Shown here: piece by piece, positions 56,412 through 58,605 of the stretch
Numbering within the stretch: position 1 is the stretch's first letter
Layout of the letters: each line of letters starts with the position of its first letter
Source: a virus
Reading direction: 5' to 3' (one strand)
IMG/VR virus record: IMGVR_UViG_3300027733_000033
Length of the DNA: 64,000 bases
The notes under the pieces: model-generated
Told to the model about the DNA's origin: nothing
Seen by the model: only the letters and a program-made list of their open reading frames with translations
The model's database searches: none
Made by a program: the position numbers and the translations under genes

Positions 56412-56828
56412 TTATTTCGCTTCAGTTAATAATTGAGGATTAGATTTGGTATTAATCAGAATTTGTTTTGGTTTTAAACTTTCTGGGATAACTTTGTTAA
56501 TATAGATACTTAGTAAACCATTATTCATATCAGCGCCTTTGACTACAGAATCAACGTCTAGCGTAAAGCTACGACTAAATGATTTTGAGCTAATACCCTT
56601 ATGAAAATATTTTGATTCAGCTGCATCAGTTTTAACAGAATAAGAAACTGTTAAAACCTGTTTTTCTAGCAAGATTGAAATATCATCTTCCGATAAGCCG
56701 GCAAGCGCTATTTCTACAATGGTATTAAAATCGTCCACATATTTAATATTGTATGGTGGATAATTAACCTTTTCCTGTCTAGCGATTTGGTTTTGTATTT
56801 CTTTTAATACTAAAATTGGATGTGTCAT
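56412..56828 (-). CDS. hsp20: Small heat-shock protein (Hsp20/IbpA family)
   Basis: YPPYNI, EIALAG, HKGIS..SF.RSF.L, A.M.NGLL.I and IPE..KP..I.I. Confidence 0.93.
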   Translation of the reverse strand: MTHPILVLKEIQNQIARQEKVNYPPYNIKYVDDFNTIVEIALAGLSEDDISILLEKQVLTVSYSVKTDAAESKYFHKGISSKSFSRSFTLDVDSVVKGADMNNGLLSIYINKVIPESLKPKQILINTKSNPQLLTEAK

Positions 56829-56976
56829 ATAAAATCTCCTTTATAAAAAGCAAGAATTGTGTTCCTAATGGCAACACAGGTTAAAAGTGGCTCAACTTAT
56901 CGTATTGAGGATGGTAGTTTCTATTGCTACACGGTCAGTTCCGTTGACGTAGAACTGTCCTACAAACCTATTTAGT
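56829..56976 (-). promoter_or_regulatory. hsp20 5' leader: late promoter, several hairpins and a ROSE-type RNA thermometer
   Basis: ACTAAATA at 56969-56976; TCTTGCT...AGGAGA SD pairing with a bulged G. Confidence 0.7.
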
Positions 56977-56997
56977 AACGTTTTACCGCCTACTATT

Positions 56998-57167
56998 TTA
57001 GCAATTCCATTTCTTTAAGGCTAATGCCTTTCTTGTTGGTTTGCCATTTTTATCTTTCATTGGTCCGGATACGCCACTCATTCTGGCACAAAAGCTTTTG
57101 CGTCTTTTTGCTGCTTATCTCTCCAGCATTTAAAACTAAGAGGGTTCTTTTTTTCGTTTAATTCCAT
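56998..57167 (-). pseudogene. Disrupted small basic phage gene
   Basis: C-terminal AAKRRKSFCARMSGVSGPMKDKNGKPTRKALALKKWNC* is out of frame with the upstream ATG and preceded by TAA. Confidence 0.55.
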
Positions 57168-57238
57168 AAATTTTCCTTTAATCATCTATAGAATTATTTA
57201 GGGTATGATAGCGAAAAGTAAGAACCAACGCAGGTATT

Positions 57239-57312
57239 TGGAGCCGGTACACAGAATCAAACTGTGATCTAAAGATTACAAGTCAATTGTATTATCATTA
57301 TACTATACCGGC
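57239..57312 (-). tRNA. tRNA-Thr(UGU), degenerate anticodon stem
   Basis: Acceptor GCCGGTA/TACCGGC with TCCA end; T arm CACAG-TTTGATT-CTGTG; anticodon loop CTTGTAA with a mismatched stem. Confidence 0.6.
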
Positions 57313-57318
57313 GTTATT

Positions 57319-57393
57319 TGGCTCCATCTCACGAAATCGAATCGCTCTCACACGGATTAACAGTTCGGTCGCACACCTTGTGCGTTAGATGGA
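57319..57393 (-). tRNA. tRNA-Asn(GUU), atypical
   Basis: TCCATCT/AGATGGA with GCCA end; loop CTGTTAA; mismatches in the anticodon and T stems. Confidence 0.65.
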
Positions 57394-57399
57394 ATAATT

Positions 57400-57475
57400 T
57401 GGTCTCCCTGCGTCGATTTGAACGACGGACAATGCGCCCCAAACGCATCATGTTACCAGACTACACTACAGAGAG
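57400..57475 (-). tRNA. tRNA-Pro(UGG)
   Basis: Full cloverleaf, ATGCG-TTTGGGG-CGCAT, ACCA end. Confidence 0.9.
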
Positions 57476-57480
57476 AATAT

Positions 57481-57585
57481 TCAGTTTGGTTATTTCAGTT
57501 TTTAACGTGGGACTAACCTATCACCACAATACAACATCAGTTTGGTTATTTCGGTTTTTAACGCGGAGCTAACCTACTGCCGCAA
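57481..57585 (-). ncRNA. Tandem 49-nt structured RNA units (putative H-type pseudoknots)
   Basis: Two copies (57537-57585 and 57481-57529) with three compensatory base-pair changes; late promoter TTAAATA at 57589-57595. Confidence 0.7.
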
Positions 57586-57604
57586 CATTATTTAATATAA
57601 AAAT

Positions 57605-57680
57605 TGGAGCCACTGAAAGGAATCGAACCCTCAACCCCCTGATTACAAGTCAGGTGCTCTACCAATTGAGCTACAGTGGC
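57605..57680 (-). tRNA. tRNA-Thr(UGU)
   Basis: Canonical cloverleaf, CCTGA-CTTGTAA-TCAGG, TCCA end. Confidence 0.95.
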
Positions 57681-57697
57681 GTTTAAAACTTATTAGG

Positions 57698-57771
57698 GGT
57701 GACTAGTGGGACTCGAACCCACAAAATCTCGAATCACAATCGAGGACGTCTACCAATTCCGTCATAGTCAC
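57698..57771 (-). tRNA. tRNA-His(GUG)
   Basis: CTCGA-TTGTGAT-TCGAG; C73 discriminator; CCA not fully encoded. Confidence 0.9.
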
Positions 57772-57791
57772 ACCTAATAAGTCTTTGTAAT

Positions 57792-57875
57792 TGGTGGAGA
57801 TCCCTGGATTCGAACCAGGTGCCCTTTGGGCACGGATTTACAGTCCGCTGCAGTCGCCTATGCCGCTCGACCTCC
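57792..57875 (-). tRNA. tRNA-Tyr(GUA)
   Basis: GCGGA-CTGTAAA-TCCGT, long variable arm, ACCA end. Confidence 0.93.
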
Positions 57876-57913
57876 AAATATTTTTTAAAAAAGTAAAGGT
57901 TTAAAACTATTTG

Positions 57914-57985
57914 TGCCCTCGCCAGGATTCGAACCTGGAACCAAATTCTTATGAGGAATACGCTCTGCCGTTGAGCTAAAAGGGC
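57914..57985 (-). tRNA. tRNA with CAU anticodon (Met or Ile2)
   Basis: TATTC-CTCATAA-GAATT; CCAGG-TTCGAAT-CCTGG; CCA not encoded. Confidence 0.85.
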
Positions 57986-57994
57986 AAATTTTTT

Positions 57995-58300
57995 AGATAG
58001 TCACCGGTACTGAACCTCCGGCATTACTGTTCTATTGGGCAGTCAACCTATTCTCTTGCGTATCAACCTACGCATTAACTATCAAGTCATAAGTATTTAA
58101 CGGAGTTACATGTGCTGCCTAGTATGACCACAAACCCGACTAGAATGTAATACTTATGCTTCATAATGTTTGTCTTTCCAAACTGTCAGTTCTTTTTTGT
58201 GCTTTAAGGCTTTCCGCAGAACATACATTTGCCACTTTTAATTGGTAGTGCTTCCAATTTTGATAGTAACCCCGATCCAAACCGAATAGGCTACCAAAAC
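57995..58300 (-). ncRNA. Chain of structured non-tRNA RNA modules leading the tRNA operon
   Basis: No ORF of 60 aa or more in the track. Closing stems GATAGTTA/TGACTATC, CATAAGTATT/AATACTTATG, GTTCT/AGAAC plus GTTTG/CAAAC, AATTGG/CCAATT and TTTTGGTAG/CTATCAAAA; early promoter at 58324-58352. Confidence 0.6.
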
Positions 58301-58359
58301 TCTTTAACTCAAACTACAGGTATATTATAATTTATTTACACAATAAAGTAAAGTTTTAT

Positions 58360-58605
58360 TTAAAGAGCAGCAATCGCCGCTACTTCACCCACTTCTGTCA
58401 AAACCGCGATAGTTTCCGCGCTACCAGCAACTTCAGCTACAGTACCAGCGGCGGCAACAGTTCCTTCTACAGCGGCTGTACCAGTTGATACAATAGCATC
58501 ATAAGCAGTTTTAGCCGCTACACCGGTAGCAATATCAACCACGCCATTACCAACTGCCTCAGCTTCATGTTTAACAGCGTGACCGATTTTAGAAAAAATA
58601 TTCAT
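58360..58605 (-). CDS. Ala/Val/Gly-rich small protein
   Basis: ORF. Confidence 0.6.
   Translation of the reverse strand: MNIFSKIGHAVKHEAEAVGNGVVDIATGVAAKTAYDAIVSTGTAAVEGTVAAAGTVAEVAGSAETIAVLTEVGEVAAIAAL

Follow-up and report, generated by a model that had tools for sequence, protein, structure and literature searches.

To our knowledge, RNA-based counter-defence by phages rests on essentially one studied case, the pseudo-ToxI of the Pectobacterium phage PhiTE. This phage-encoded, toxin-less copy of a type III antitoxin belongs to the toxI family, with 36-nt repeats and a hetero-hexameric complex, and experiments have shown it to be capable of overcoming abortive infection and of neutralising the toxin of the host (Blower et al. 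2012, PMC3475682). It worked only after expansion in the laboratory: the wild-type locus, with 1.5 repeats, gave no protection until expanded, and the expanded repeats let PhiTE escape ToxIN (PMC3475682).

[quoted passage not shown] Cryo-EM of tenpI from an enterobacterial system reveals two non-identical repeats folded as H-type pseudoknots, with the A-rich loop lying along stem S1 and the single-stranded ends bound to TenpN (PMC13682666; PMC12283969). The repeats of tenpI operons are followed by a terminator and the TenpN gene, and full operons have also been published from viral contigs (PMC12283969). TenpIN of Photorhabdus strongly aborts T4-like phages, and no escape mutants were recovered (PMC5449768).

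Here we describe an array in the window, by which we mean the whole 64-kb stretch of viral DNA analysed, that resembles both systems and differs from each. Like tenpI, it comprises two tandem, non-identical units of about 50–56 nt that carry the consensus nucleotides and tails. Unlike tenpI operons, it has no clear promoter of its own and is without both the terminator and the TenpN gene; it sits inside a tRNA operon, between tRNA-Thr and tRNA-Pro. Like pseudo-ToxI, it is a phage-encoded copy of a type III antitoxin without a toxin. However, pseudo-ToxI is of another family and does not lie in a tRNA operon, and whereas wild-type PhiTE needs expansion of its 1.5 repeats, the window phage has two full units that are conserved in its clade. 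The activity of pseudo-ToxI was established by experiment, whereas that of the window array is predicted from its sequence. The RNA family and the principle of mimicry are already known; new are tenpI in the role of a mimic, full-length two-unit arrays conserved in wild phages, and their embedding in a tRNA operon. The literature searched, which covered a part of the journals, held no description of toxin-less tenpI in phages.

Array Architecture and Genomic Context

By its gene content, the window belongs to an uncultured T4-like myophage. Its genes include one for a DNA polymerase of the gp43 type, which shares about 40% identity with the cyanomyophage enzymes, as well as those for a clamp, a clamp loader and a terminase, an SbcCD-like nuclease, PhoH and Hsp20; the GC content is about 34%. 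The array lies on the minus strand within a tRNA cluster (Table 1). A preliminary description had reported two tandem units at this position, and both their letters and the flanking tRNA-Thr and tRNA-Pro were confirmed.

Each unit consists of a 6-bp stem 1 with one bulged pyrimidine, a 5-bp stem 2 and a 14-nt A-rich strand. The two 49-nt cores are separated by a 7-nt spacer, which places the period of the array, 56 nt, at the long end of the published tenpI range. Direct comparison of the two units gives eight differing positions, six of which form three compensatory pairs in stem 1, as the preliminary description had it: C57582-G57564 in unit A becomes U57526-A57508 in unit B, A57578-U57567 becomes G57522-C57511, and G57577-C57568 becomes A57521-U57512. 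One of the remaining two differences is the stem bulge and the other falls in the A-rich linker. Since units A and B have the same loop pentamer, GGUUA, and the same UAACC downstream, the window by itself is uninformative on the pseudoknot stem. A 23-nt degenerate motif matches the two units and nothing else in the 64 kb, with 0.02 matches expected by chance.

Table 1. Coordinates of the tenpI-like array, its structural elements and neighbouring features in the window
Feature	Coordinates	Strand	Remarks
Whole array	57475..57586	-	Two tandem tenpI-like antitoxin units without a toxin gene; period 56 nt; R1 69.6 and 71.6 bits; R2 58.3 and 66.9 bits
Unit A	57531..57586	-	R2 58.3 bits, E 8.1e-13
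Unit A core	57585..57537	-	49 nt
Unit A stem 1	57583-57580 and 57578-57577 with 57568-57563	-	C57579 bulged
Unit A loop	57576-57569	-
Unit A stem 2	57574-57570 with 57548-57544	-
Unit A A-rich linker	57562-57549	-
Unit A single-stranded tail	57543-57537	-	AAACUGA
Unit B	57475..57530	-	R2 66.9 bits, E 4e-15; abuts tRNA-Pro
Unit B core	57529..57481	-	49 nt
Unit B stem 1	57527-57524 and 57522-57521 with 57512-57507	-	U57523 bulged
Unit B loop	57520-57513	-
Unit B stem 2	57518-57514 with 57492-57488	-
Unit B A-rich linker	57506-57493	-
Unit B tail	57487-57479	-	AAACUGAAU
tRNA cluster	57239-57985	-	Met, Tyr, His, Thr, Pro, uncalled tRNA-like piece, Thr
tRNA-Thr(UGU)	57605..57680	-	Directly upstream of the array; most relatives share this neighbour
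tRNA-Pro(UGG)	57400..57475	-	Directly downstream of the array
tRNA-like sequence	57320-57395	-	Between tRNA-Pro and the second tRNA-Thr
ORF-free leader	57986-58323	-	About 340 nt; between the sigma-70-like site and tRNA-Met
Sigma-70-like promoter candidate	58324..58352	-	TTTACT, 17-nt spacer, TATAAT; heads the leader and the tRNA operon with the array

The preliminary description had also placed a late promoter, TTAAATA, just upstream of the array. This site is not conserved, and in relatives with a single unit the unit starts 11–12 nt after tRNA-Thr. A sigma-70-like site at the head of the operon would suffice for expression of the array; it is a consensus match only, the scanned region holding four such sites against 3.7 expected from shuffles. 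The leader behind it is 97% identical in the related contigs L002 and L012 and about 86% identical in L007 and L009, and has no match in Rfam.

The tRNA cluster itself is a recombination hot spot: between window positions 57200-57990 and L002:3600-4400 it is about 74% identical, whereas the flanks are 97–99% identical. The sets of tRNAs differ as well, with Gly and Asn in L002 and His and a duplicated Thr in the window, and tRNA-Pro also differs. The tRNA-like sequence in the cluster has a 7–8-bp acceptor stem, an encoded CCA, CUGUUAA at the place of an Asn anticodon loop and a T-loop-like UUCGAUU, with a 6-bp hairpin where the D-arm is expected, and is called neither by ARAGORN nor by the Rfam tRNA model. 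Its counterpart in L002 is a normal tRNA-Asn(GUU), whereas L012 has the same odd version as the window.

Covariation of the Pseudoknot in Related Phages

Relatives of the array were reached through the neighbouring Hsp20 gene (L002) and through pattern scans of viral and metagenome contigs. Other searches were less productive in the collections covered: in 50,697 phage records, blastn with the tRNA region and the 116-nt array found no more than tRNAs and three chance matches of 36 nt in Bacillus phages, megablast with a 20-kb part of the window gave no match, an exact 33-nt degenerate pattern had 0 matches in viral contigs, and a pattern anchored on tRNA-Thr yielded no new loci.

The contig L002 carries a tandem array as in the window. 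In its second unit the loop reads GGCGC and the downstream strand GCGCC, which amounts to three simultaneous compensatory changes in stem 2. Other phage units have GGCGU with ACGCC, one G-U variant and further inner pairs of stem 1. Across the 12 distinct phage units, 94.7% of cells pair, versus 37–57% when the 3' partners are slid by 1–3 columns, and both sides have changed in three pairs of stem 1 and three pairs of stem 2. The GGUUA/UAACC H-type pseudoknot put forward in the preliminary description is thus supported by covariation in both stems. At the unpaired consensus positions the nucleotides do not vary among the phage units. Three units of close relatives (L002 unit A and L012 units A and B) have a C-A mismatch in stem 2 that is uncompensated. 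Minimum free energy folding of a 129-nt stretch performs no better than on shuffles (z = 0.23), a value that has no bearing on the fold because the method cannot model pseudoknots.

In the phages that carry the element, the nucleotide identity of the flanking genes to the window runs from 97–99% down to about 65%. The diverged carriers, whose flanking genes are just 65–86% identical, have kept the element with compensatory changes, which argues for selection on the RNA. Within this clade the units always lie between tRNA genes. Four relatives with a single unit (L003, L004, L007 and L043) retain the pseudoknot core but have neither the UUGU that is conserved on the 5' side nor the AAAC-GAA tail on the 3' side; since it is these parts that touch the toxin in the solved complex, the copies there may work differently or not at all.

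Homology to Toxin-Linked tenpI

The same motif is present in bacteria, where the gene for a TenpN toxin (NCBIfam NF047358) follows two tandem copies and a terminator. A blind scan of metagenomes for the motif also recovered loci, none of them a tRNA cluster, that open with a promoter-like site, after which come two units in tandem, a rho-independent terminator and an ORF of about 150 aa. Four of the downstream ORFs were tested, and all score 115–135 bits against NCBIfam NF047358, "TenpIN family toxin" (cut-off 90); homologues in NCBI records are named "type III toxin-antitoxin system TenpIN family toxin". An AlphaFold model of the ORF (pLDDT 90.4) has ToxN, AbiQ, CptN and MazF as its best PDB neighbours, with weak Foldseek E-values (best 0.02), and the ORF has no match in Pfam, PADLOC or PDB sequence searches, with either the single sequence or a profile.

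The relationship between the phage and bacterial units was examined in both directions with covariance models. A model built only from the 12 phage tRNA-cluster units, with stem 1 only (R1), was run on 74 TenpN loci taken, together with the 1.5 kb before each, from named bacterial genomes. It matches about 60 of the 74, on the toxin strand and 40–270 nt upstream of the toxin start, mostly as two matches in tandem and with E-values down to 1e-11. In the reverse direction, a model built only from 52 toxin-linked bacterial units (R2) matches nothing in the 64-kb window except the two units (unit B with E 4e-15 and 66.9 bits, unit A with E 8e-13 and 58.3 bits); the bacterial alignment behind R2 was made with R1, so that the two tests are not fully independent. 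The score of unit B is as high as that of genuine toxin-linked units, and nearly all unpaired positions that are conserved in bacteria have the consensus nucleotide in unit B, among them the 5' UUGU and the CCAAAC-GAAU tail at the 3' end. Unpaired nucleotides common to the window and bacterial units comprise the UAGG start of the loop, CGUUAAAAAC-GAAA and the CCAAAC-GAAU tail. Stem 2 covaries in the bacterial units too, where the alignment is looser.

The array also agrees with the published properties of tenpI. With two units at a period of 56 nt, it lies within the repeat length (39–57 nt) and approximate copy number (two) of the family. The element matches the published fold, in which S1 is long, the first loop has a single nucleotide and a long A-rich strand runs on S1, and shares with tenpI the longer stem 1, the very short first loop and the long A-rich strand; the covariation and the 14-nt linker are in keeping with an H-type pseudoknot whose stem 1 is lined by an A-rich strand, in which A-minor contacts are predicted. 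Similarity to repeats that precede TenpN genes was found with both R1 and R2, the reciprocal matches having E-values of 1e-11 to 4e-15. By these sequence comparisons, the element is a tenpI antitoxin RNA of the TenpIN type III system and not a new class of RNA. The preliminary description had taken it for an unknown RNA and named a match to a known family as the result that would speak against this; tenpI is such a match.

Several of the bacterial units that score best with R1, among them those of L052, L057 and L044, come from freshwater methanotroph assemblies (Methylomonas, Lake Baikal Methylococcales and Methylumidiphilus), Marinomonas and Oceanospirillum. These units may offer a weak lead to the type of host whose TenpN matches the phage units.

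Comparison with Rfam Families

Rfam 15, searched over the whole window at the gathering threshold and over 56700-58450 at E <= 10, returns only tRNAs and noise, and the element is covered by none of its families, preQ1, SAM-II and 6A included. A search with Infernal against Rfam and a new covariance model had both been proposed in the preliminary description; the former gave no match, whereas the new models R1 and R2 link the units to TenpN loci. The description had also compared the element to preQ1-I. This likeness holds for the architecture but not for the riboswitch models, none of which matches at E <= 10; in the direct test, preQ1-I (RF00522) has no match at this threshold, and tRNA-Pro, not a regulated gene, lies downstream. 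The earlier argument that the array is no cis riboswitch, for want of a downstream ORF, is borne out by this tRNA.

Closest in form is 6A RNA (RF02925), which has the architecture of the window units: a 6-bp hairpin with an 8-nt loop that begins UAG is followed by an A-rich linker, a stretch complementary to the loop and a tail with GA at its end. The RF02925 model (gathering threshold 41.2 bits) has no match in 56700-58450 even at E <= 10, and none to the proteobacterial tenpI units most like those of the window even at E <= 0.1. It does match in Leptotrichia and Treponema (L114:1244-1350, L112:1364-1414 and L116:1363-1464), where the matched units stand in tandem immediately before distant TenpN genes. 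By this position, 6A RNA, listed in Rfam as an sRNA gene, is the antitoxin of that TenpIN subgroup. On the basis of these matches, 6A RNA is a sister subfamily, and the subfamily of the window and proteobacterial tenpI is absent from Rfam; as proteobacterial tenpI is missing there, toxin-less occurrences read as "unknown structured RNA".

Absence of a Toxin Gene from the Window and Related Loci

A six-frame search with the TenpN profile (hmmsearch --max) finds nothing in the 64-kb window or in any phage tRNA-cluster locus, whereas the same search finds the toxin in every locus of the toxin–antitoxin type. Two related viral records, 27 and 37 kb long, are likewise free of any TenpN-like frame. 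In all of the roughly 60 bacterial loci matched and in the viral contig L118, which holds a complete tenpIN operon, the toxin gene lies 40–270 nt downstream of the repeats, behind a terminator. Behind the window array, by contrast, comes tRNA-Pro, with no adjoining terminator-like site. The RNA is a member of the tenpI family, and the locus is not a toxin–antitoxin system.

Putative Decoy Function

The array is phage-borne, toxin-less and resembles a genuine type III antitoxin, the features of a mimic; its T4-like phage context rests on the DNA polymerase, clamp loader, terminase and related genes. We think it probable, given the homology and the missing toxin, that this toxin-less tenpI array, co-transcribed with the phage tRNAs, keeps host TenpN inhibited and blocks abortive infection. 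Its expression, processing, binding of TenpN and anti-defence effect we infer as follows. The sigma-70-like promoter at the operon head would drive joint transcription of the array and the tRNAs, probably at an early stage. The precursor would be cut into single units by tRNA maturation, by the host TenpN endoribonuclease itself, or by both: maturation of the 3' end of tRNA-Thr would free the 5' side of unit A, and RNase P acting at the 5' end of tRNA-Pro would set the 3' end of unit B. The units would then fold as H-type pseudoknots with the A-rich strand along stem 1, and the single-stranded tails at their 5' and 3' ends would fill the active site and RNA groove of TenpN in the way of the cognate tenpI in the 2:2 TenpIN complex. 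When phage takeover halts host transcription and the labile host antitoxin decays, the phage copies would keep TenpN inhibited, and abortive infection would fail. The precedent is the expanded pseudo-ToxI of PhiTE, for which a mechanism of this kind was demonstrated (PMC3475682).

Several points count against such a decoy. Type III antitoxins are usually selective for their cognate toxin; further, the wild-type PhiTE locus is not protective, stem 2 has mismatches in some units, and the single-unit relatives are without tails. On the other side, selective pressure for a decoy is plausible, as no escape mutants were recovered when Photorhabdus TenpIN aborted T4-like phages (PMC5449768), and the survival of such phages in nature would be explained by a decoy of their own. 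The preliminary description had suggested a ligand or protein sponge; the protein sponge comes near to a toxin decoy, whereas a ligand aptamer is disfavoured by the linkage of the family to toxins.

A broader proposal, to which we give an even chance, is that the tRNA operons of environmental T4-like phages deliver ready-made decoys of antitoxin RNA: full-length tenpI conserved in the clade and freed by tRNA processing, not from an operon of its own, with two non-identical units that widen the range of TenpN variants neutralised. It is a complete two-unit tenpI array that has been kept with compensatory changes in tRNA operons across this clade of uncultured T4-like phages. If the proposal is true, this would be the first natural, constitutive RNA counter-defence against the TenpIN family, and phage tRNA clusters would gain a second anti-defence role besides the replacement of cleaved tRNAs. 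T4 Dmd is a protein counter-defence against a toxin–antitoxin endoribonuclease. So is T4 TifA, which neutralises such an enzyme during infection (PMC10853763). In contrast to these proteins of T4-type phages, the window array would be an RNA mimic of an antitoxin. The tRNA regions of T-even phages are anti-defence loci that are linked with Seg-type endonucleases (PMC13096335).

Of the other explanations, the re-use of the pseudoknot as a module of the tRNA precursor, serving independently of TenpN as an RNase-guiding spacer or an exonuclease block, is unlikely. Such a module would fit the constant position of the units between tRNA genes in this clade, and the single-unit forms that have retained the pseudoknot core without the toxin-binding tails. 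However, the window units retain the non-structural nucleotides and tails of toxin-linked tenpI, which a mere spacer does not need, and single orphan units lie outside tRNA clusters in two unrelated phages (L027 and L015).

The array could instead be the decaying remnant of a captured tenpIN locus that has lost its toxin and has no present function, a reading with a small probability. Decay is suggested by the uncompensated stem-2 mismatches of some units, by the loss of the conserved tails in single-unit relatives and by the location in a recombination hot spot. It is difficult to reconcile with an element that persists to about 65% nucleotide identity of the neighbouring genes with six covarying pairs and 94.7% pairing, whose unpaired consensus nucleotides are invariant across phage units, and whose unit B scores like genuine toxin-linked units.

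It is very unlikely that the array is the cognate antitoxin of a complete phage tenpIN, with the toxin gene outside the 64-kb window and the pair used by the phage, for example for the exclusion of other phages or for host takeover. Full tenpIN operons do exist on viral contigs (L118; PMC12283969), and the toxin search covered the 64-kb part of the phage genome. Yet in the genuine loci the toxin follows the repeats past the terminator, at the place taken by tRNA-Pro in the window, and a TenpN-like frame was found neither in the window, nor in the related loci, nor in the two viral records of 27 and 37 kb.

That the array works in trans as a small aptamer for a ligand, like preQ1-I or SAM-II, is extremely improbable: an H-type pseudoknot with an A-rich third strand has the preQ1-I topology, but no Rfam riboswitch family matches at E <= 10, no regulated ORF lies downstream, and the homologous units are toxin-linked in about 60 bacterial loci, a linkage that itself makes an aptamer unlikely, with a protein as the known partner of the family (PMC13682666).

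Other tenpI-Like Units and Rejected Candidates

Single tenpI-like units without a toxin were also seen in other phage contigs. L027, a metagenome contig of the phiEco32/SU10-like, Kuravirus type, has one orphan unit at 2422-2477 (56.6–64.9 bits), located outside a tRNA cluster, with the terminase gene on one side and, on the other, the terminator in front of the portal gene. The cultured phiEco32-like phages phiEco32 and EcP-vB have other sequence in this slot and no orphan unit. L015, an unrelated phage contig, likewise has a single orphan unit outside tRNA clusters. In the rIII-30.9 spacer of T4, by contrast, R2 has no match even with its filters off. In L033:1179-2072, a GIY-YIG/NUMOD3 homing-endonuclease-like gene lies no more than about 130 nt behind a tandem tenpI-like pair, an arrangement that recalls the published link of SegB-type endonucleases with anti-defence tRNA loci.

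Matches to the scan pattern in L013, L022-L024, L028, L029, L039, L040 and L119 were set aside as chance matches. Nine viral contigs (L005, L006, L011, L014, L016, L017 and L019-L021) match the pattern and have a possible loop/3' complement, but the match is antisense in a 5' UTR and has no R1 score, and they were rejected as members of the tenpI family. In L011:6700-6830, as in the other eight, this is the 5' UTR of a 379-aa gene (phrog_1362, function not annotated) of a 57.5-kb phage with terminal repeats. Downstream of a terminator and a promoter of the extended -10-like type, the L011 5' UTR has two complementary pairs that interleave, GGGGC/GCCCC and AGGCC/GGCCU; read on the strand that is transcribed, their loops have lengths unsuited to a classical pseudoknot, and the pairs may be alternative hairpins.
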